Shown here one piece after another: positions 41,628 through 51,135 of a stretch of DNA of 64,000 nt. A program made the translations under genes and the position numbers. The first letter of the stretch is position 1, and each line of letters opens with the position of its first letter. The notes under the pieces were generated by a model, which worked only from the letters and a program-made list of their open reading frames with translations, made no database searches and was not told the DNA's origin. Location of the stretch: NCBI GenBank assembly GCA_020160875.1, contig JAIUPE010000002.1, positions 84 through 64,083 of the forward strand, in the 5' to 3' direction. Source of the stretch: Pseudomonadota bacterium (GTDB lineage: Bacteria > Pseudomonadota > Alphaproteobacteria > Rhodospirillales > Rhodospirillaceae).

Positions 41628-43304
41628 GTGCAGAGGGGAGCGGTAATGCCTGACGGCCAGAGCGGCGTTGTGGAGAGTTTAGCGGAGGGCGTCAATGTTG
41701 AACGCGCGCCGTTGGTGGCTCCAATCTTCTCCACACCTCAGTACGAACGGCCCTCCTACGTCCTCGAAGATTTTAAGTGGGGCAGCGGCCCGCGCGGCAC
41801 CACGGGCGGCACCATCACTTGGGCGATCGTGACCACCGGCCAGACCTATCCGGCCAATGCCGAATACACCAGCCAGGCCACACCCATCTCGTCGGTCTTC
41901 ATGCCGACCATCCGCGCGGCCTTTTCGCGCTGGGACGCGGTCGGCAACTTCACCTTCGTCGAAACGACTTCGCCGATGACCGCCGACATGGTGGTCATCT
42001 TCGACGAGTTGCAGGCTCAAAGCTCGGACACCGTGGGCCTTGCCAATACGTGGTCTCAAGGCAGTGAGGTCACCAACTCATACATCTCGTTCGATATCGG
42101 GCGTCGTTACCGGCTGATGGACGGTTCTGTCCAAACCGTCGGCACCAGTTCGTCCGACGGTTCGGTCGATTTTTACACGCTCGTTCTTCACGAGGTCGGG
42201 CATGCGCTGGGCCTCGACCACGAGGATAACCAACAGTCGGTGATGAGCGCATCGCAGAGAACCGACATTACCGATCTTACGGCTGATGATATCAGCGCGA
42301 TCCACGCCATATACGGCACGCCGAGCGGGGACGATTTTTCGGCAACCACCGCGACGACGGGCGTCGCCGTCGTGGGCTCCACGGTCACGGGCAGCATCGA
42401 AACCGCGGGCGATACCGATTGGATCCGCGTGACCCTCACAGCGGGGACTCTGTACCGCTTCGACGGACGTGGCAGCGCGTCCAGCGGCGGCACGCTCGCC
42501 GATCCCGCGCTGCAGCTCCTGAATGCGGCGGGGACCGTTCTTATCGCCGACAACGATAGTGGTCCGGGCGCGGACGCGCGAATCATGTTCAAGGCCGTCA
42601 CGTCGGGGACTTATTACCTCGCCATGCGGGCCAACACATCCACGGCCACCGGCACCTACACCATCGCCGCGACGGCAAACCCGGACGACTACGCGGCCTC
42701 AACGGCGACGGCCGGCACTGTCGCCGTGGGCGGTACGGCCACCGGCATCGTCGAAACCGCCGGCGATCGCGACTGGTTCCGAGTCACGCTCACCGCGGGC
42801 ACCGCATACAACATCCAAGTCTCCGGCACGGCCACGGGCAGCGCGCTACGTTGGACGGACTCGAACGTGGTGCTGCGCAATGCCGACGGTACGCAGGTGG
42901 GCGCGAATACGCGCAGCAGCCTGGGCGCCTCCGCGCTCCTCACCTATACACCGACTAGCACCGGCACCTATTACATCGATGCCTTAGCCTACAGTTCGGG
43001 TATTGGCAGCTATTCGGTTTCCGTTGCGCCCGCCAGCGCGGCGCAAGCAAGCGCACTGACGGCCGGCGATCTCGCCGTCGTGACGGCGCCGCCCGCGATC
43101 TCTCTCGATGAACTGCCCACGCAAGTCGCGCGCTCGACGACGGTTTTTGTGGAAGGTCCTTTGAGCGCCATTCTCACGCCACCGCCCGCAGATTTGTTCT
43201 CGCTGCCCGCAGAACAGCAGAATACATTCATGGCTGGCCACACGCCGTTCGAGCAACTCCTTCAGCAGCAGCCGAGCACGGGTTACAATCTCCTGCCGTT
43301 CTAG
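41628..43304 (+). CDS. M10 (matrixin/serralysin-like) zinc metalloprotease with 2 PPC-like repeats and conserved C-terminal tail
   Basis: 'HEVGHALGLDHE' at 42189-42224, with 'SVMS' downstream. Two ~117-aa repeats carry 'GDxDWxRVTLTAG...DSG...GTYY'. The likely true start is ATG at 41646 ('MPDGQSGV'), which is shared with the paralog. Confidence 0.8.
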   Translation: MQRGAVMPDGQSGVVESLAEGVNVERAPLVAPIFSTPQYERPSYVLEDFKWGSGPRGTTGGTITWAIVTTGQTYPANAEYTSQATPISSVFMPTIRAAFSRWDAVGNFTFVETTSPMTADMVVIFDELQAQSSDTVGLANTWSQGSEVTNSYISFDIGRRYRLMDGSVQTVGTSSSDGSVDFYTLVLHEVGHALGLDHEDNQQSVMSASQRTDITDLTADDISAIHAIYGTPSGDDFSATTATTGVAVVGSTVTGSIETAGDTDWIRVTLTAGTLYRFDGRGSASSGGTLADPALQLLNAAGTVLIADNDSGPGADARIMFKAVTSGTYYLAMRANTSTATGTYTIAATANPDDYAASTATAGTVAVGGTATGIVETAGDRDWFRVTLTAGTAYNIQVSGTATGSALRWTDSNVVLRNADGTQVGANTRSSLGASALLTYTPTSTGTYYIDALAYSSGIGSYSVSVAPASAAQASALTAGDLAVVTAPPAISLDELPTQVARSTTVFVEGPLSAILTPPPADLFSLPAEQQNTFMAGHTPFEQLLQQQPSTGYNLLPF

Positions 43305-43397: not shown

Positions 43398-46300
43398 GTG
43401 GCGGAGCGGGGGAGCAGGATGCCTGACGGTCAGAGCGGCGTTCCGGAAACCTTCGATTACGACGTCAATGTCGTAAGTTTTCCGCTTGTCGCGCCCATCG
43501 CGGTCACGCCTCAATATGAGCGCCCGGCCTACGTGCCCGAAAACTACAAATGGGGCAGCGCCGCTGTCGGCACCTCCGGCGGAACAATCACATGGGCGGT
43601 TGTCTCCGCGGGCCAGACTTATCCTTCCAGCGAGTATACGTCGGCGGCGACGGCGATCGGCTCGGTGTTCATGCCGACCATCCGCGCGGCATTCTCGCGC
43701 TGGGACGAAGTCGGCAATTTCACCTTTGTTGAATCCTCGAACCCCATGACGGCCGATATCGTCGTCATGTTCGACGAGCTGTCGGGCGAGGGATCCAGCA
43801 CTATCGGTCTTGCGCATACCTATTACAGCGCCGGCGTGGTGCGCGATTCCTATATCTCCTTCGACATCGGGCGGCGCTATCGCCTCACTGACGGCACGGT
43901 GCAGATCGTCGGATCGCCCACCTCTTCGAGCACATCGGACTTTTATACGCTAGTTCTGCACGAGGTCGGTCACGCCCTCGGCCTCGACCACGAGGACGAT
44001 TTCCCCACCGTGATGGGGTCCTTCCAGAACTCCAGCATCACGGATCTCACCAGCGACGAGATCAACGGCATCCGCTATCTCTACGGAACGCCGGGCGGCG
44101 CCGGCACCGACGACTGGGGCGGGACGACGGCCACGACCGGCGCGATCATTGTCGGCGCATCGGTGATCGGGAATATCGAAACCGCCGGCGATAGCGACTG
44201 GTTTCGTGTCACGCTGACCGCCGGGGTCACGTATCAATTCGACATGCTGGGCGGCAGTTCGCTCACCGACCCCTTCCTGAACCTGCGCAATTCAAGCGGC
44301 GTCGTCGTGGGCAGCGACGATGATTCCGGCGACGGTCTCAATGCCAGACTGGTTTATACGCCGACGAGCAGTGGTGTCTACTTTGTGGACGCGCGCTCGG
44401 CGTCGGCCTCGGGCACCGGCTTCTACGGTGTGCTCGTCACGCAATCGAGCACCAGCAATCCCAACCCCAGCGACGATTACGCCGGAAGCACATCAACGAC
44501 CGGCACGATTGCCGTGGGTGGAACGGTCAACGGCAATATTGAAGTCGGCGATGATCGCGACTGGTTCCGCGTCACGTTGGCCGCTGGCACCACGTATCGC
44601 GTCGATCTCAACGGCGGCACGCTCGCCGACCCGCTCCTCTATATCCGTAACTCCAGCGGCACGAGCGTCGCTAGCGACGACGATTCCGGCACGGGCCTCA
44701 ACGCGTCTCTCAGTTACACACCGACCACGACGGGCACCTATTACATCGACGCTCAGGGTGCGACGTTGTCGGGCACGGGCACTTACACCTTGAGTCTTAC
44801 GCAAACCAGTGCGGCGGACGACTACACGGCTTCAACAAGTACCACCGGCAGTGTCACCGTTGGTGGCACCGCGACTGGCCGCATCGAAACTGGTGGAGAC
44901 CGCGATTGGTTCCGCGTCAGTTTGACGGCCGGAGCCACGTACCGCTTCGATGTGCGTGGAATCGATACGTCCGGCGGTACGCTGTCGGATCCCTACCTTA
45001 CCTTGCGGGATTCGAACGGCACGCTGCTGGGCAGCGACGACGATTCCGGAACAATTCTGGATGCGCAGCTCTCCTACACAGCGACAACGAGCGGCACGTA
45101 CTATGTCGAAGCGCGCGCTTCGGGCTCGACCGGCACTGGCACTTACACAGTCGGCGTGACGCAGACGGGTACCGGTACAGGCGGCCCTGACGATTTCGGC
45201 CAGACAGCGAGCACCGCCGGCATCCTTTCTGTCGGGCAAATCCGTACGGGCACCTTCGAGAACAATCAGGATCAGGATTGGTTCGCCGCGACCTTGACCG
45301 CGGGGACCCCTTACCACATCCAGGTTCGTGGACGCGACACGGGCGGCGGCACGATGGTCAATCCGTCGTTGTCGATCTACACCTCCACGGGCCTTATTCG
45401 CTTTGATTCGGATTCCGGATTCGGCGCCGACGCGTTTCTCAGTTTCACCCCAACCTCTACGGGCATCTACTATATCGCTCCCGAAGCGCTCTTCGCGGGA
45501 ACGGGCACCTATACCGTTCAGCTTGTCGAAGCTATTGGTGGCGATGACGCTTGGAACTCCGCCCTTTCATCCGTGGTGCTGCCGGTCGGTCTGACGTTCG
45601 CCGGAAATATCGGCAACAGCTTCGATACGGACTACATCCACGTCGATATGGTCGCGGGCACGACGTATCAGATCGACGTGCGGGGTGCGGCATCTGGGGT
45701 CGGGACGCTTTCCGATCCCTATTTGTCCATTTTGAAGCCCAACACGTTCTCCGCCGATAAAGTCGACAACGACAGCGGTACGGGCGCCGATGCTCAGCTT
45801 ATCTATACGGCGACGGTAACAGGGCGGCATGACCTGGCCGTGGAGGCCATTGGCGGGGCTTTGGGCTCCTACGTCGTATCTGTCGTGCCGACAACAGCGC
45901 CGCCGGCACAAGATTATCCAGCTACCGTTGCAACGACCGGCGTCGTGAATGTAGGGGGCACGCTCAGCAGCACCATTGACCAAGCCGCCGACGTCGATTG
46001 GATCCGCGTGAACCTCACCGCCGGAACGCTCTACCGGTTCGACGCGCGCGGCAGCGCCTCCGGCGGCGGGACTTTGGCCGACCCGGCGCTGCAGCTTCTC
46101 AATTCCAGCGGCACGGTGCTTGCCAGTGACAGCGATAGCGGGACAGGTGTGGACTCGCGCATCATGTTCCAGGCTACCACGTCCGGAAGCTATTACCTCG
46201 CGGCGCGCTCCAATTCATCGACGGCCACAGGGACCTACACCATCGCCGCGACCGCGAGTCCCGACGACTACGCCGCCAACACGGGCACGACGGGCACGCT

Positions 46301-46907
46301 GACGGTCGGCGGTACGGCCCATGGACTTTTGGAGACGTCGGGAGATCGCGATTGGTTCCGTGTCTCGCTGACGGCGAACACGACCTACACCATCAGCCTT
46401 TCCGGAACAGCGCTCGGAAACGCCCTGCGCTGGACGGAATCGTCGTTCTACGTACGCAATGGCAGCGGCTTCCAGCTCGCCACGGCGTCGAGCAGTGGTC
46501 TCGGCGCGTCCGCGGTTCTGACCTACACCGCTTCGACGACGGGCACCTATATCATCGACACGCAGGCTTACAGCAGCGGCGTTGGCAGCTATACCGTATC
46601 GATCGCGACGGGCCGCGCGCAGCAAGCCGATATGCAGCCCGCGATCGGCGAAGAGACAGACCTGTCGGCGGCCGATCTCGCCGCGATCATGGCGCCGCCT
46701 GCGATCATGCTCGACGAGCCGCCCGTGCAAATGGCGCGGTCCATCACGGTGTTGGCGGAAGACCCCTTGAGCGTGATACTTACGCCGCCGCCGGCGAACC
46801 TGTTTCAGCCGCCCACGGCGCCGCAGAATCCGTTCATGGCGAACACACCGCTCGATCAATTATTCCAGCAGCAGCTTAGCAACTCTTACAACCTGCTGCC
46901 GTTTTAA
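43398..46907 (+). CDS. M10 (matrixin/serralysin-like) zinc metalloprotease with 7 PPC-like repeats and conserved C-terminal tail
   Basis: 'HEVGHALGLDHE' at 43959-43994. Seven ~119-aa repeats. The likely start is ATG at 43419. The N-terminal and catalytic regions are closely similar to the upstream paralog. Confidence 0.8.
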   Translation: MAERGSRMPDGQSGVPETFDYDVNVVSFPLVAPIAVTPQYERPAYVPENYKWGSAAVGTSGGTITWAVVSAGQTYPSSEYTSAATAIGSVFMPTIRAAFSRWDEVGNFTFVESSNPMTADIVVMFDELSGEGSSTIGLAHTYYSAGVVRDSYISFDIGRRYRLTDGTVQIVGSPTSSSTSDFYTLVLHEVGHALGLDHEDDFPTVMGSFQNSSITDLTSDEINGIRYLYGTPGGAGTDDWGGTTATTGAIIVGASVIGNIETAGDSDWFRVTLTAGVTYQFDMLGGSSLTDPFLNLRNSSGVVVGSDDDSGDGLNARLVYTPTSSGVYFVDARSASASGTGFYGVLVTQSSTSNPNPSDDYAGSTSTTGTIAVGGTVNGNIEVGDDRDWFRVTLAAGTTYRVDLNGGTLADPLLYIRNSSGTSVASDDDSGTGLNASLSYTPTTTGTYYIDAQGATLSGTGTYTLSLTQTSAADDYTASTSTTGSVTVGGTATGRIETGGDRDWFRVSLTAGATYRFDVRGIDTSGGTLSDPYLTLRDSNGTLLGSDDDSGTILDAQLSYTATTSGTYYVEARASGSTGTGTYTVGVTQTGTGTGGPDDFGQTASTAGILSVGQIRTGTFENNQDQDWFAATLTAGTPYHIQVRGRDTGGGTMVNPSLSIYTSTGLIRFDSDSGFGADAFLSFTPTSTGIYYIAPEALFAGTGTYTVQLVEAIGGDDAWNSALSSVVLPVGLTFAGNIGNSFDTDYIHVDMVAGTTYQIDVRGAASGVGTLSDPYLSILKPNTFSADKVDNDSGTGADAQLIYTATVTGRHDLAVEAIGGALGSYVVSVVPTTAPPAQDYPATVATTGVVNVGGTLSSTIDQAADVDWIRVNLTAGTLYRFDARGSASGGGTLADPALQLLNSSGTVLASDSDSGTGVDSRIMFQATTSGSYYLAARSNSSTATGTYTIAATASPDDYAANTGTTGTLTVGGTAHGLLETSGDRDWFRVSLTANTTYTISLSGTALGNALRWTESSFYVRNGSGFQLATASSSGLGASAVLTYTASTTGTYIIDTQAYSSGVGSYTVSIATGRAQQADMQPAIGEETDLSAADLAAIMAPPAIMLDEPPVQMARSITVLAEDPLSVILTPPPANLFQPPTAPQNPFMANTPLDQLFQQQLSNSYNLLPF
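44109..46610 (+). repeat. Seven tandem in-frame ~357-nt coding repeats (PPC / pre-peptidase C-terminal-like domains)
   Basis: Each unit reads 'DDY(A/G)xST(S/A)TTGx(I/V)xVGGTxxGxIExxGDRDWFRV(T/S)LTAG(T/A)TY...DDDSG(T/D)G...YT(P/A)T(T/S)(T/S)GTYY...GTGTYT'. Confidence 0.85.
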
Positions 46908-47338: not shown

Positions 47339-47377
47339 GCCTTCGGATTGGCATAGGCTGCTGCGATGCTCGCCTAG

Positions 47378-47506
47378 CTAGTCGAAGCCATATGTCATGA
47401 ATACATATAAGGCGATGACCATCACGACACAGATAACGGCGCCTATAAAGGTTCCTTTGAGGAGCGGCCCTCGAACCTTCGTTGCGTATTCCTCGTCAGC
47501 TCTCAT
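47378..47506 (-). CDS. 42-codon hydrophobic small ORF (candidate)
   Basis: Not in the ORF track because it is under 60 aa. Sequence: MRADEEYATKVRGPLLKGTFIGAVICVVMVIALYVFMTYGFD. GGGGAG lies 4 nt upstream of the ATG. It is 29 nt downstream of, and co-directional with, the 131-aa ORF. Confidence 0.35.
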   Translation of the reverse strand: MRADEEYATKVRGPLLKGTFIGAVICVVMVIALYVFMTYGFD

Positions 47507-47535
47507 TTTGCTCCCCGAGGTTCGTCACTTGCGGG

Positions 47536-47931
47536 CTAAAGCCAAGGCAATCGTCGTTCCCGACAAGCTATCTGCTTGTCCGGTTGGATGGTGAGCGCGA
47601 CAACGTCAATGCTTATGAAAGTTTCGTAACCGCAACGTTGTTCGATCGGCGAACCATTATTCTGTAAGCGGGCGAAAGCCCACCCCTCCGGACGAACGAA
47701 ACCAATAAACCACTTCGAGCGTCCACCATCGAGAGCGCCCTCCCATCTGAGGTCCTGCTCAAACCCGATCTCCACTCCGTCGAGCTTTTCATACCCGTCG
47801 TTCTTTACGATCGCGAAAAGCAGGCCGTCAAAGCAGATGTAGATTGTTGCCAGCAGCAGGGCCGTGACAACGGCATGTCGAAACCCGCGACTCCCAATGA
47901 GTGGCGGTTTACCCGTGTCGTTGACGCTCAT
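47536..47931 (-). CDS. Hypothetical single-pass membrane protein (131 aa)
   Basis: One TM helix 'AVVTALLLATIYICFDGLLFAIV'. The gene is AT-rich and starts 5 nt after the upstream gene's stop. Confidence 0.6.
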   Translation of the reverse strand: MSVNDTGKPPLIGSRGFRHAVVTALLLATIYICFDGLLFAIVKNDGYEKLDGVEIGFEQDLRWEGALDGGRSKWFIGFVRPEGWAFARLQNNGSPIEQRCGYETFISIDVVALTIQPDKQIACRERRLPWL

Positions 47932-47936
47932 ATTGC

Positions 47937-48923
47937 TCAGCCTCTGTCATTTCCCAAACGGAGTTTTACTTTCTTCATGGCGTCTTCGATCTGCGCTTCG
48001 CCGCCGCCCGGCAACGCGCGGCCAATGCGATTATTGTACAAATCCATTTTTTGTTCGCCCGGGGCATTTGGGACTGAAACTTCGTGTGCGTCGGCCATCG
48101 CTTTAGCTCGTTCGGCCCCCATTGTGCGCGCCATTAAATAGTTCCAGGTGGTATGCTTGTACGCGTCGGCTTCATTGTCGCGCGCGATGACACCGGGGTA
48201 TCGGCGCCCGGTAGCATCCCAAGCCGCAAGAGTCGCAGCGCCTGCCATGAGCGCACCCAATGGATCGCGCCACGCCGCACCTAAATGGCCGGGTGAATTC
48301 GGATCAAATCCCAGCGCTGCTGGGCTAGGTCCCGCCACACTTGGCGCATTGACGTCGGGAATAAAAAGGCCTGGCTTGTCTATACTCTCCGTGTGTGTGG
48401 CCTGTGTGGCAGGATCTTTCTTAAACAGTCCGCCGATCCAATCCATCACCCCAAACTCAGGCGCGCCGGTTTCGGGATTAATATGATTCAATGCGTTGCC
48501 CACGATCAGAACTTCTAGCGGGATGCCGTATGGTTCTGCGGCGCGGCGTAATGCGGCGAGTACCTCTTCGCTTTGAAGCGCTACTGGAACTACGATCTCC
48601 TGGCGCGCGACGTGCGCTACTTCCGTGTCGCTCCCGCGGCCTTGTAAAGCGACAACTCGCGTTTTGAATTGCTGCACTAATTCCGGATTGGATCGGTGTT
48701 CAAGTATCTGAAGTGCATCTTGCACTTGGGCTAAGTAGCGGGTGCGATCCCGGTCCCCGCTGGCCGTTGCCGCGTTCTTAAGTGCGAGTAACGCACGTAG
48801 AGCGGCTGGTCCCGCAGCAATGACGGCATCGCGATCAATGCCTAGCCCAGGCGCATGATCCGCAAGTTCGGTCAGCTTGATGCGAGTTTGATGGGACATT
48901 GGTAAGCGTGAGAAGTCAGTCAT
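47937..48923 (-). CDS. Hypothetical protein with C-terminal 'HxxWN...AHE...MDLYNNRIGR' domain
   Basis: About 328 aa from 'MTDFSRLP' (AGGAAG SD), or 336 aa from the upstream ATG at 48947. No signal peptide. AT-rich relative to the flanks. Confidence 0.6.
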   Translation of the reverse strand: MTDFSRLPMSHQTRIKLTELADHAPGLGIDRDAVIAAGPAALRALLALKNAATASGDRDRTRYLAQVQDALQILEHRSNPELVQQFKTRVVALQGRGSDTEVAHVARQEIVVPVALQSEEVLAALRRAAEPYGIPLEVLIVGNALNHINPETGAPEFGVMDWIGGLFKKDPATQATHTESIDKPGLFIPDVNAPSVAGPSPAALGFDPNSPGHLGAAWRDPLGALMAGAATLAAWDATGRRYPGVIARDNEADAYKHTTWNYLMARTMGAERAKAMADAHEVSVPNAPGEQKMDLYNNRIGRALPGGGEAQIEDAMKKVKLRLGNDRG

Positions 48924-49221
48924 GAGTCTTCCTTTCAAGAATGGCAATCTCTTGAGCGATCTGCAGGCGCGCTGCTGCGCGCACGTATCGTGCGTTGTTA
49001 ACCGGGGTCGATAAGGGAAAGTCCGCGGCGGCGGTTGCGCAGCGGGACATTTATCAATTTGCGCCTAGCGCCAAGTGTCGCACAACTGTTGCCACCGCGA
49101 ATTTTGCTGAAGCCTTCACGAGACAACAGAATCTGGAAAGTGTCGCCTGTCGCCAGGTGTCGCCAACATTCATGCTGTAGCGCTTGGCGAAATCGAAAAG
49201 CCTCGCCGTTTCGGCATAGCT

Positions 49222-51030
49222 TTAGGTGCCGCCGCCATCGGCCGTGAACTGCAAAGCCGCCACACGGGCGTACAACGGATTGCTCGTGATGAGCTGCTCA
49301 TGCCGGCCCGTGGCGACGAGACGTCCATCATCGATGACTGCGATGCGGTCAGCATTCACGACGGTCGCCAGACGGTGCGCGATCACCATGGTGGTGCGTC
49401 CCACCATCAAGCGTTCAAGCGCCGTTTGCACCAGACGTTCGTTCTCCGCATCGAGCGCGCTGGTGGCTTCATCGAGCAGCAGCAGCGCCGGGTCGCGCAG
49501 GATGGCGCGGGCGATGGCGATCCGCTGCTTCTGCCCGCCCGACAGGCGCACGCCGCGCTCGCCCAGGAAACTCTTCATGCCGTCGGGCAGCTTCTTGATG
49601 AATTCCATCGCCGCCGCCGCTTCCGCCGCCGCGTGGACTTCCTCGTCCGTTGCATCGGGGCGGCCGTAGCGAATGTTCTCCATGGCGTCGGCGGCGAAGA
49701 TCACCGGATCCTGGGCGACCATGCCGATGCGCGAGCGCACCACCTGCGGATCGGCTTCCTTGAGGTCGATGCCGTCGATACGCACGCTGCCCGCCTGCGG
49801 ATCGTAGAAGCGCAAAAGGAGCTGGAAGACGGTGGTTTTGCCGGCGCCCGACGGGCCGACGAGGGCGACATGTTCGCCTGGGGCCACATTCAGCGTAAGG
49901 CCTTTCAAGGCCGCCGTTTGCGGACGCGACGGATAGTGGAAGGTCACATTCTCGAAATCGACAGCGCCGCGCGCGGGCAGCGGCAGCGCTTTCGGCTGTG
50001 CGGGCGCGGTGATTTCCGGCTCGGTTTCCAAAAGCTCGATCAGGCGTTCGGTTGCACCCGCCGCGCGCTGTAAATCCCCCATCACTTCCGTCATGGCGCC
50101 GGTCGAGGCGGCGACGGTCACCGAGTAGAAAATGAAGGCCGTCAAATCGCCGGGCGTCACCGTGCCGGCGATGACGCCGTGTCCGCCCGCCCACACCACG
50201 ATGGCGATGGCGGCGAAGACCAGAAGGATGACGATGGCGCCCAGCATCGCGCGCGCCTTGATACGGCGCATGGCGGTGATGAAAGCGCCCTCCACATTGC
50301 GTGCGAAGAAGGCGCGATCGCGGTCTTCATGTACAAAGGCCTGTACGGTGCGGATGGCGTTGATGTTCTCCTCCGCATAGGACCCCACATCGGCTACGCG
50401 GTCCTGGCTCTCACGCGAGAGTTTGCGCACTTTGCGGCCGTACCAGATGATCGGTACGATCACCGCCGGCAATACCAGGGCGACAAGCCCTGTAAGCTTG
50501 GCGTTGGTGACGATTAGCATCGTCACCCCACCCACCAGCGCGACGGAATTACGCAGCGCGATGGACAGGGACGAACCCACCACTTGTTGTAGAAGCGATG
50601 TGTCGGTGGTAATGCGCGAAAGGATTTCGCCGGTCTTGGTGGTCTCGAAGAAGCCCGGCGAAAGTCTGAGGATATGGTTGAATACGGCCGTGCGGATATC
50701 GGCCACGACTCGCTCGCCGATCCACGAGATGTAATAAAATCGTGTGAAGGTGCCGACGGCGATGACGACGATCACCCCGATGAGCGTCAAAAGGCCCTGA
50801 TCGAGCATTTCGCGGCTTCCGGCGGAAAGTCCGCGGTCGATCACGAACTTTAGCCCCAGGCCAATGCTTAAGGTCGCGGCCGAGGTGATGGCCAACGCGA
50901 TACAGAAAATGAGCAGTTGGCCCTTGTACGGACGCATGAATTCATAGGTCCGCCGCAGGTGGGCGTAATTCTTGCTCCGGGGCCGGTCGGGCATGTTCCA
51001 GCGGGAGGGGCCGGAAGACCGTTCGCTCAT
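49222..51030 (-). CDS. ABC transporter, fused permease/ATP-binding half-transporter (ABCB/MsbA/Atm1-like exporter)
   Basis: Six-TM domain followed by an NBD: 'GPSGAGKTT', 'LSGGQKQRIAIARA' and 'LLLDEATSALD'. Start at 'MSERSSGP' (cat at 51028-51030). Confidence 0.85.
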   Translation of the reverse strand: MSERSSGPSRWNMPDRPRSKNYAHLRRTYEFMRPYKGQLLIFCIALAITSAATLSIGLGLKFVIDRGLSAGSREMLDQGLLTLIGVIVVIAVGTFTRFYYISWIGERVVADIRTAVFNHILRLSPGFFETTKTGEILSRITTDTSLLQQVVGSSLSIALRNSVALVGGVTMLIVTNAKLTGLVALVLPAVIVPIIWYGRKVRKLSRESQDRVADVGSYAEENINAIRTVQAFVHEDRDRAFFARNVEGAFITAMRRIKARAMLGAIVILLVFAAIAIVVWAGGHGVIAGTVTPGDLTAFIFYSVTVAASTGAMTEVMGDLQRAAGATERLIELLETEPEITAPAQPKALPLPARGAVDFENVTFHYPSRPQTAALKGLTLNVAPGEHVALVGPSGAGKTTVFQLLLRFYDPQAGSVRIDGIDLKEADPQVVRSRIGMVAQDPVIFAADAMENIRYGRPDATDEEVHAAAEAAAAMEFIKKLPDGMKSFLGERGVRLSGGQKQRIAIARAILRDPALLLLDEATSALDAENERLVQTALERLMVGRTTMVIAHRLATVVNADRIAVIDDGRLVATGRHEQLITSNPLYARVAALQFTADGGGT

Positions 51031-51060
51031 AGGAAATCCTTTGGAATGTGGGGCTTCACT

Positions 51061-51135
51061 AGCGCCGCCGATTTGAAGTTCCCGCACTGGGTGGTGTAAG
51101 ACCACGCCGGGAACTTCAAATCGAAAAGCGGCGCT
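51061..51135. repeat. Bulged long hairpin element (family copy 2)
   Basis: Outer arms AGCGCCGC/GCGGCGCT, inner arms CGATTTGAAGTTCCCG/CGGGAACTTCAAATCG (perfect 16 bp), a 4-nt bulge AAAA and a 23-nt loop. It shares the 13-nt core GATTTGAAGTTCC with copy 1. Confidence 0.8.

Follow-up and report, generated by a model that had tools for sequence, protein, structure and literature searches.

The window analyzed here is a stretch of 64,000 nucleotides (64 kb) from contig JAIUPE010000002.1 of a Pseudomonadota genome assembly (GCA_020160875.1) placed in the Rhodospirillaceae, and this report concerns an islet of three open reading frames (ORFs) on its minus strand, between arfB and the gene for an ABC exporter, which together resemble a toxin effector with its immunity genes (Table 1). 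The ORFs are tightly stacked, with gaps of 5 nt between ORF1 and ORF2 and 29 nt between ORF2 and ORF3, exactly as set out in a first-pass annotation made from the sequence alone. That annotation had also described ORF1 as a protein of about 328 aa with no signal peptide and a helical N-terminal half, ORF2 as a 131-aa single-pass membrane protein, and ORF3 as a hydrophobic ORF of 42 codons, and all of these descriptions are borne out: ORF1 lacks a signal peptide, with a maximum 19-residue hydropathy of 1.28, its N-terminal half is helical in an AlphaFold2 (AF2) model, and ORF2 and ORF3 each have one strongly hydrophobic segment. ORF3 is preceded by a GGGGAG Shine-Dalgarno sequence 5 nt before its ATG, as had been noted. 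We place the start of ORF1 at the ATG at 48923, which has an AGGAAG Shine-Dalgarno sequence before it and agrees with the N-termini of all homologs; a mechanical listing of ORFs starts it at the TTG at 48947. Neither NCBIfam nor PADLOC has a match for any of the three proteins, and no sigma-70 consensus was matched in the region upstream of ORF1. Homologous loci are cited below by number (L001 and so on).

Table 1. Features of the three-ORF islet, in coordinates of the 64-kb window.
Feature	Position	Strand	Size or basis
ORF1, predicted two-domain effector (carrier, disordered linker, Min-Wnt/DUF6973 toxin domain), no signal peptide	47937..48923	-	328 aa
ORF1 residues 1-168, N-terminal carrier domain	48420..48923	-	profile family, polymorphic C-termini, viral-contig matches to the core
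ORF1 residues 169-210, low-confidence Pro/Ala/Ser-rich linker	48294..48419	-	AF2 confidence, alignments
ORF1 residues 211-328, Min-Wnt (lipocone)/DUF6973/BteO-like toxin domain	47940..48293	-	matches to PF22322, 9UU0 and PXF31500.1
ORF2, candidate cognate immunity protein	47536..47931	-	131 aa; family confined to DUF6973 neighbors
ORF3, small single-pass membrane protein, second candidate immunity or accessory factor	47378..47506	-	42 aa; kept in L007, L011 and L012
Intergenic region 5' of ORF1, presumed promoter region of an ORF1-ORF2-ORF3 operon	48924..49221	-	298 nt; gene layout only

For the C-terminal domain of ORF1, DUF6973 had been suggested in the first-pass annotation, and a Pfam search confirms it, with PF22322 (DUF6973) matching residues 218-305 at an E-value of 1.1e-20 and 73.9 bits, against a gathering cut-off of 27. 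None of the papers searched mentions DUF6973 by name, and a single-sequence search of the PDB with ORF1 gave a weak match to entry 9UU0. A profile of 11 family members matched the same entry, MBP-BteO, at E 4.5e-9, and the matched segment of BteO itself scores PF22322 at E 1.9e-14; the next matches of the profile in the PDB are Wnt-7a (E 0.12) and Wnt-5a (E 1.1), over the helix that bears an NNxxGR motif. BteO, which gives the family a characterized member, is an effector of the GA3 type VI secretion system (T6SS) of Bacteroides fragilis that is toxic only in the periplasm; it has been shown to sequester OmpA-type peptidoglycan-binding domains, it is neutralized by a periplasmic OmpA mimic, BtiO, and alanine substitution of R143, H144, H167, E168, D187 or D191 abolishes its toxicity (PMC12541434). 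These six residues align to K256, H257, H280, E281, E290 and D294 of ORF1, each being either the same residue or a conservative substitute. Across the aligned family there is no variation at H257, H280, E281 and D294 and almost none at E290, while position 256 is K or R.

The same domain leads to the prokaryotic Min-Wnt family, of the SAW clade in the Lipocone superfamily, which is defined by an sNxxGR motif together with a conserved His (H2), Glu (H3) and Asp (H4), and which forms the toxin tip of polymorphic toxins, for which an attack on lipid head groups is predicted, as by TelC on lipid II; the origin of animal Wnt proteins has been placed in this Min-Wnt/lipocone family (PMC12419801). 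In a BLASTP comparison the ORF1 domain matches the Min-Wnt member PXF31500.1 (eLife supplementary file 16) at E 2e-13 with 41% identity over the H2-H4 region, and ORF1 has the motif itself (N297-N298-R-I-G301-R302) along with H257, E281 and D294, all invariant in the 11 family members. Because the ORF1 domain matches a Min-Wnt sequence and carries the NNxxGR motif, we conclude from these alignments that DUF6973, Min-Wnt and the head domain of BteO are one family, and the C-terminal domain of ORF1 most likely belongs to the family ancestral to animal Wnt proteins. The AF2 model places its helices at residues 221-241, 251-268, 270-283, 288-303 and 309-317, with a predicted local distance difference test score (pLDDT) above 90. 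The earlier suspicion that this block is toxin-like thus gains a named basis, in homology both to a proven toxin and killing effector, BteO, and to the Min-Wnt toxin-tip family.

The helical N-terminal half of ORF1, as judged from the distribution of its relatives, is a widespread modular carrier domain, a point that the first-pass annotation had missed. It consists of a helical bundle at residues 11-94 and a core with the signatures G95-R-G-x-D-T-E-x-A-H-V…P113 and N149-P-x-T-G-x-P-E-F157, and no Pfam or PHROG model matches the 168 residues. Toward the linker behind it the pLDDT of the model drops to about 50-57 at residues ~151-180, falling below 50 at 168-177 and returning to 80-90 by 181-200, and the linker ends just before a 'FDPNxPG' pre-toxin motif (residues 206-212). 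A word-indexed search found 20 relatives of ORF1, half of which share residues 1-~168 and have unrelated C-termini, and when 1.84 billion cluster representatives were searched with a carrier profile, 1891 clusters matched (E≤1e-3), of which 881 also pass E≤1e-10. Their proteins are 200-490 aa long, and the matched part is N-terminal in every case. When the C-termini of 128 among the best carrier-profile matches were compared with Pfam, 11 cargo families were recognized, namely Phage_lysozyme (7 proteins), Peptidase_M23, DUF6973 and Hydrolase_2 (6 each), Ntox44 (4), Glucosaminidase (2), and 3D, M15_4, DPBB_1, VanY and M74 (1 each), the remainder being unrecognized; the recognizable cargoes in this set are mostly peptidoglycan hydrolases. 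In species genomes we located 27 carrier loci, nearly all of them in metagenome-assembled genomes (MAGs) labelled Rhodospirillaceae or Alphaproteobacteria, with up to five copies per MAG, and 33 chromosomal carrier proteins fall into 19 C-terminal clusters.

A direct view of cargo exchange is offered by L013, which has a DUF6973 cargo, and L004, which has another. These are orthologous loci with 69% DNA identity over 2595 nt, spanning an upstream gene and the carrier, and the homology stops at residue ~162-168. Beyond this point neither the cargoes nor the genes downstream correspond: an ORF2-like gene comes next in L013, a gene for a 158-aa protein in L004. Read from the alignment, this breakpoint is a cassette displacement, the classical signature of polymorphic toxins. 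Stand-alone DUF6973 cassettes that begin near a 'FDPNGPG' pre-toxin motif, soon after a short N-terminal leader, were also found, some of them with an ORF2-like gene. The gene 5' of the L013 and L004 effectors (L013:1-1903, L004:6514-9849) codes for a TonB-dependent receptor that ends in an OmpA/Pal-like peptidoglycan-binding domain. BteO is reported to target the OmpA C-domain, though the adjacency of such a gene to these effectors may be a coincidence.

Several further neighbors of carrier loci were recorded. Three loci lie 1-4 kb from the flagellar export gate gene flhA (L026:6250-8442, L030:5682-6173 and L040:13060-15111) and have different C-terminal domains, which suggests a second conserved 'hotspot' locus; the L026 effector gene is followed directly by a small transmembrane ORF and then by an NtrC/FlbD-like sigma-54 regulator. 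A gene for a YdjM-like membrane protein (~160 aa, weak PF04307) lies a few hundred bases downstream of effectors with different cargoes in L001 (11393-11884) and L018 (11280-11759). A recurrent neighbor of 934 aa is DinG and irrelevant.

The distribution of ORF2 ties it to the toxin domain rather than to the carrier. ORF2 has a signal-anchor helix (~15-40), predicted N-in, and a domain of ~90 aa that is all β and includes C100 and C123; the AF2 model, of low confidence (3 sequences, pLDDT 57.6), shows a transmembrane helix and 7 β-strands, with no helices in the soluble part. Positive residues precede the transmembrane segment and some family members keep both Cys, so that the sequence is consistent with a β-domain facing the periplasm. 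A word-level search found two ORF2 homologs only. An ORF2-like gene lies immediately downstream of the DUF6973 gene in the window, L007-10, L011 and L013, convergent to it in L001, and downstream of the stand-alone DUF6973 cassettes L041 and L044, and these neighbors share the signal anchor, a ~90-aa β-rich domain, and N44, L50, V53, W63, W74 and Y102. A hidden Markov model of the ORF2 family matches only neighbors of DUF6973 genes, in six independent contexts and three gene orientations, and matches nothing in any carrier locus with a non-DUF6973 cargo. The effector/immunity layout proposed in the first-pass annotation is strengthened by this recurrence of toxin and partner in other genomes, as it is by the cassette displacement.

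ORF3 is kept as an ORF of 42-45 codons in L007, L011 and L012, with the motifs EEYA… and FM(T/M)Y(G/V)F(D/E); in L012 it follows the toxin gene directly, with a 4-nt overlap, and is the sole downstream gene. A 48-aa single-transmembrane ORF after the DUF6973/ORF2-like pair of L044 (L044:1694-1840) occupies the position of ORF3 and has no detectable sequence similarity to it. The stand-alone cassettes of L041 and L044 have in common a divergent gene for a multi-pass membrane protein of ~142 aa (L041:2266-2694 and L044:8-436, both minus strand), which could be of the 'Imm-4TM' class reported beside Min-Wnt toxins (PMC12419801).

The carrier has relatives in phages. At least 505 loci in IMG/VR contigs of uncultivated viruses encode relatives of carrier residues ~60-175, while tblastn searches of GenBank phages with the window copy and the P0020 copy of the carrier gave no match. 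The viral relatives are 250-640 aa long, with the core at the extreme N-terminus, a Gly-rich middle and a C-terminal 'PAMLSDGEFVMTA' motif; they match tape-measure-type, endolysin and 'DNA ejection' PHROGs and have no match in Pfam, and their neighbors include genes for DNA-ejection proteins, virion structural proteins, portal, terminase, adaptors and tail fibers. The first ~85 helical residues of the carrier are restricted to the chromosomal clade. Because of the viral-contig matches, their PHROGs and their virion-gene neighbors, we conclude that the core of the ORF1 carrier is, by sequence comparison, a homolog of the module with which virion/ejection proteins of phages begin. In the phage relatives L045-L124 (e.g. 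L045:9884-11095) the N-terminal GRxGDxxIAHVxxGExVxP…NPxTGxPEF is accompanied by a similar-looking C-terminal 'DxxPAMLSDGEFVMTA', and the gene order that recurs is a ~620-aa gene, one or more small genes, the core-module gene, a ~320-aa gene and large genes. The viral C-terminal motif may correspond to the trafficking domain that Burroughs et al. (2025, PMC12419801) call 'broken-hairpin'.

The islet had been called compositionally foreign on the strength of sampled lines of about 42-50% GC. Those lines do have such values (0.43, 0.50 and 0.42), but they are extremes, and the islet as a whole has a GC content of 0.558, which is the lowest of any 1883-nt stretch in the window (mean 0.621, standard deviation 0.018) and yet only moderately poor in GC (0.56). 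Counted over 60-nt lines the mean is 0.557 in the islet (n=31) against 0.619 in the flanks (n=131), and GC at third codon positions (GC3) is 0.55-0.61 in the islet ORFs against 0.58-0.89 (mostly 0.7-0.85) in the other called genes. The module adjoins arfB in L007, a 99%-identical contig, and also in L011 and L012, in which arfB is 94% and 86% identical, and because it does so in relatives at this distance the islet, though compositionally atypical, is on this comparative evidence not a strain-specific recent insertion. In L012 the other flank is not an ABC gene and an additional gene of 295 aa lies ahead of arfB. A scan of metagenomes with arfB for an empty site found only relatives of ≤65% identity, none with an ABC neighbor or synteny. 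Between the window and L011, amino-acid identity is 93.6% for arfB, 88% for the toxin end of ORF1, 56% for ORF2 and 50% for ORF3, and by this measure ORF2 and ORF3 are the fast-evolving part of the module. Copies of GGCATAG near the two borders (at 47350 and 49213) are attributable to chance, as the first-pass annotation had allowed: the window holds 6 where 4.6±2.2 would be expected, and 33 of 100 shuffled sequences have as many or more. A search for direct repeats flanking the islet found none.

The islet's immediate surroundings comprise two matrixin-PPC proteases, arfB, the ABC exporter and DinB. The exporter (49222..51105) is assigned to TIGR02204, 'MsbA_rel', at 864.8 bits, exceeding the trusted cut-off. 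Directly upstream of arfB, the tandem plus-strand genes at 41628..43304 and 43398..46907 encode Peptidase_M10 (matrixin) metalloproteases of 558 and 1169 aa, both with multiple pre-peptidase C-terminal (PPC) repeats and IRG7-like galactose-binding segments. Gene content over the 64 kb was surveyed in three Pfam scans of called genes of at least ~140 aa, with the best 25 families listed in two of the three, and all families listed are housekeeping or metabolic.

We regard it as likely, from comparative sequence evidence, that the islet encodes a polymorphic-toxin-type effector, in which a predicted periplasm-acting envelope toxin of the Min-Wnt/BteO type is accompanied by ORF2 as candidate immunity protein and by ORF3 as a membrane partner. 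ORF1 would be made in the cytoplasm as an effector without a signal, ending in a Min-Wnt/DUF6973 toxin that is by homology of the BteO kind and would act on a target cell's envelope from the periplasmic side. It might do so by sequestering OmpA-type peptidoglycan-binding domains, as BteO does, or by cleaving or exchanging the phosphate-linked head groups of carrier lipids such as lipid II, as is predicted for lipocones by analogy with TelC, and both options invoke the same residues, K256/H257, H280/E281, E290, D294 and NNxxGR. The N-terminal 168 residues are, by comparison of loci, a reusable carrier behind which new toxin-immunity cassettes are swapped in. Since it seems to descend from the module at the start of virion/DNA-ejection proteins of phages, the carrier may, we suggest tentatively, serve in packaging or in translocation along a route that the locus itself does not encode. 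ORF2, with a membrane-anchored β-domain facing the periplasm, would neutralize incoming toxin in sibling cells, and ORF3 would be a second immunity or accessory factor. A bolder extension, which seems to us possible though doubtful, is that the 168-aa carrier represents a previously unrecognized delivery class of polymorphic toxins, a phage ejection or internal virion module domesticated in free-living Alphaproteobacteria (Rhodospirillaceae-type MAGs) that would carry cell-wall and envelope toxins, including the Wnt-ancestor domain, into neighboring cells without a known secretion system, via a phage-like particle or by self-translocation.

A number of observations weigh against the islet being such an effector module. 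No secretion-system, phage, gene transfer agent, integrase or transposase gene is among the families listed in the Pfam scans of the 64 kb, in agreement with the first-pass statement that no secretion, integrase or transposase gene is adjacent, and neighbor clustering at the 27 genomic carrier loci found no conserved gene and no shared apparatus gene, so that nothing found at these loci accounts for export. For the AF2 model of ORF1 (pLDDT 86) Foldseek found no match in the PDB at E<1 and recovered neither 9UU0 nor the solved lipocones, and the link to BteO therefore rests on sequence profiles; Foldseek against BFVD confirmed only phage DUF6973 proteins. Toxicity of ORF1 and rescue by its partners are predictions. 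In L012 and L026 the DUF6973 effector has no ORF2-like gene beside it, the homology of ORF2 to its more distant counterparts is weak (pairwise BLASTP E 0.003, 22% identity), and the immunity mechanism known for BteO is not transferable to ORF2 because the low-confidence all-β model is unlike the OmpA-like α/β fold of BtiO. The difference in identity between toxin domain (88%) and ORF2 (56%) in the window/L011 comparison shows no co-diversification, which is unusual for a binding pair. Finally, at its 3' end (47937..47980) ORF1 ends '…KKVKLRLGNDRG', whereas its homologs read '…KKGYLRxSPF…' and the +1 frame gives '…KTPFGK'; this frameshift relative to the homologs is limited to the last ~12 codons and identical in L007, and it could be a sign of decay.

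That last feature is one of several that would suit a decaying remnant of a phage ejection or lysis gene, one that has no current role and has merely happened to survive between arfB and the exporter gene, as would the phage ancestry of the N-domain, the atypical GC3 and the absence of any further phage gene nearby. We consider this improbable, given that all three ORFs are intact and conserved in relatives at 50-88% amino-acid identity with lengths and motifs preserved, that the toxin domain has lost none of its catalytic or binding residues, and that there are multiple intact paralogs per genome, each with cognate downstream genes. The same phage homology of the N-domain core might instead indicate an anti-phage abortive-infection module, in which a Min-Wnt suicide effector is restrained by ORF2 and ORF3 and the ejection-protein-like N-domain senses or mimics a phage component; some Min-Wnt domains have been placed in predicted antiviral systems (PMC12419801), and the islet is isolated in a housekeeping neighborhood, as is true of many defense islets. 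PADLOC, however, recognizes none of the three proteins, ORF1 has no sensor NTPase or nucleic-acid-binding domain, the other carrier cargoes are peptidoglycan hydrolases that need periplasmic access, the partner proteins are predicted to face the periplasm, and the swapping of cassettes with linked small membrane proteins is a polymorphic-toxin signature, so that defense appears to us about as improbable an explanation as decay.

Cell-wall cargoes could also point to an endogenous factor in envelope remodelling, such as a helper in flagellar or trans-envelope assembly comparable to FlgJ-type proteins, with ORF2 and ORF3 as membrane regulators, and the three carrier loci near flhA, with the small transmembrane ORF and NtrC-type sigma-54 regulator after the L026 gene, would fit such a role. 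Yet flagellar context is lacking at the locus in the window and at most of the others, the extreme C-terminal polymorphism, the Ntox44 cargoes and the cassette displacement do not suit a housekeeping function, and the closest characterized homolog, BteO, is a killing effector; we think this explanation very unlikely. The possibility that ORF1 is a substrate of the adjacent MsbA-like exporter, the four genes forming a type-I-like export unit, draws on their adjacency and common orientation in the window. We reject it as scarcely credible: the exporter is of the MsbA_rel type and not the HlyB or PrtD type of type I secretion systems, no membrane fusion protein or TolC partner is present, ORF1 has neither a C-terminal RTX nor a GG-leader signal, and no other locus of the ORF1 family has an ABC neighbor, the left flank of L012 being unrelated and L001, L004 and L013 differing.

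The toxin family and the toxin/immunity logic proposed here are already known. The carrier domain has no entry in Pfam, PHROGs, NCBIfam or PADLOC and is not among the Min-Wnt partners that the lipocone survey lists, and the same holds for the families of ORF2 and ORF3. The islet ties a family of 'unknown function', DUF6973, to two advances of 2025, BteO and the Min-Wnt/lipocone origin of Wnt, and provides a concrete alphaproteobacterial example with candidate immunity genes. Published work disagrees as to whether such domains kill through OmpA binding or through an attack on lipid head groups, and the ORF1 toxin domain, which is small and soluble, has no T6SS nearby and has its key residues kept or conservatively replaced, should make a convenient second test case. 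The carrier, for its part, heads a large uncatalogued family of putative effectors that target the envelope and have relatives among phage ejection proteins. If the carrier does specify a delivery route, this would be interbacterial antagonism of a new kind, in Alphaproteobacteria that are abundant in freshwater and soil, and the family would in addition supply modular proteins active on the cell wall.

Among known systems, the closest is BteO-BtiO (He et al., PNAS 2025, PMC12541434; PDB 9UU0), which has a toxin domain of the same family, both scoring PF22322, an effector without a Sec signal, and an adjacent immunity gene whose product faces the periplasm, as is predicted for ORF2. The two systems differ in phylum and in their other parts. 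BteO has an N-terminal transmembrane helix and is encoded inside a T6SS locus, whereas ORF1 has the 168-aa soluble carrier and no T6SS genes are found among the families listed in the 64 kb or among the genes annotated on either side of L001, L004 and L013; BtiO is a signal-peptide protein with an OmpA-C-like α/β fold, whereas ORF2 is membrane-anchored and, in its low-confidence model, all β; and the third small membrane gene present here, ORF3, has no counterpart in BteO-BtiO. With the Min-Wnt/lipocone families (PMC12419801) ORF1 shares the sequence match to a catalogued member, the sNxxGR motif, the conserved His (H2), Glu (end of H3) and Asp (H4), and linked immunity candidates that are membrane proteins; the family fold is a soluble domain with a four-helix cone core plus a fifth helix, and five helices are predicted by AF2 for the ORF1 domain. 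The catalogued N-terminal partners of Min-Wnt domains (RHS, WXG, DUF6531, open β-barrel, cystatin-like, SPVB and others) include none resembling the ORF1 carrier, and ORF2-like proteins are not obviously Imm-BamE, Imm-4TM or Imm-Jellyroll of the lipocone paper; enzymatic activity of lipocones on phosphate-linked lipid head groups is itself a prediction (PMC12419801). TelC-TipC of Streptococcus intermedius, a lipid II phosphatase of the type VII secretion system (T7SS), belongs to the same superfamily as the ORF1 domain, acts only outside the cytoplasm and has an immunity protein located in the membrane or periplasm, as is proposed here, but falls in another lipocone clade (TelC as opposed to SAA-Wnt) and is delivered by LXG/T7SS (PMC12419801).

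A direct sequence match of ORF1 to TelC was not obtained. Phage association has a reported precedent in the MuF polymorphic toxins, which were reportedly described by Jamet in 2017, and in the Bxa type (Alexei et al., JBC 2024, PMC11699363). MuF and Bxa-type toxins likewise have a phage-derived N-domain, interchangeable C-terminal toxins and linked immunity genes, and Bxa has two immunity proteins, like the two candidates of the islet. They lie inside prophages beside head genes, whereas chromosomal copies of the ORF1 family lie among housekeeping genes; their cargoes act in the cytoplasm, whereas those of the ORF1 family would target the envelope; and the ORF1 carrier is unrelated to MuF in sequence, having no Pfam match. 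Compared with polymorphic toxins in the sense of Zhang et al. 2012, the family lacks a recognized trafficking domain or linked secretion system (by Pfam and PHROG, in the window and at the 27 loci), and displays the conserved N-terminal region with variable C-termini, the cassette displacement and the candidate immunity gene linked to toxin type.

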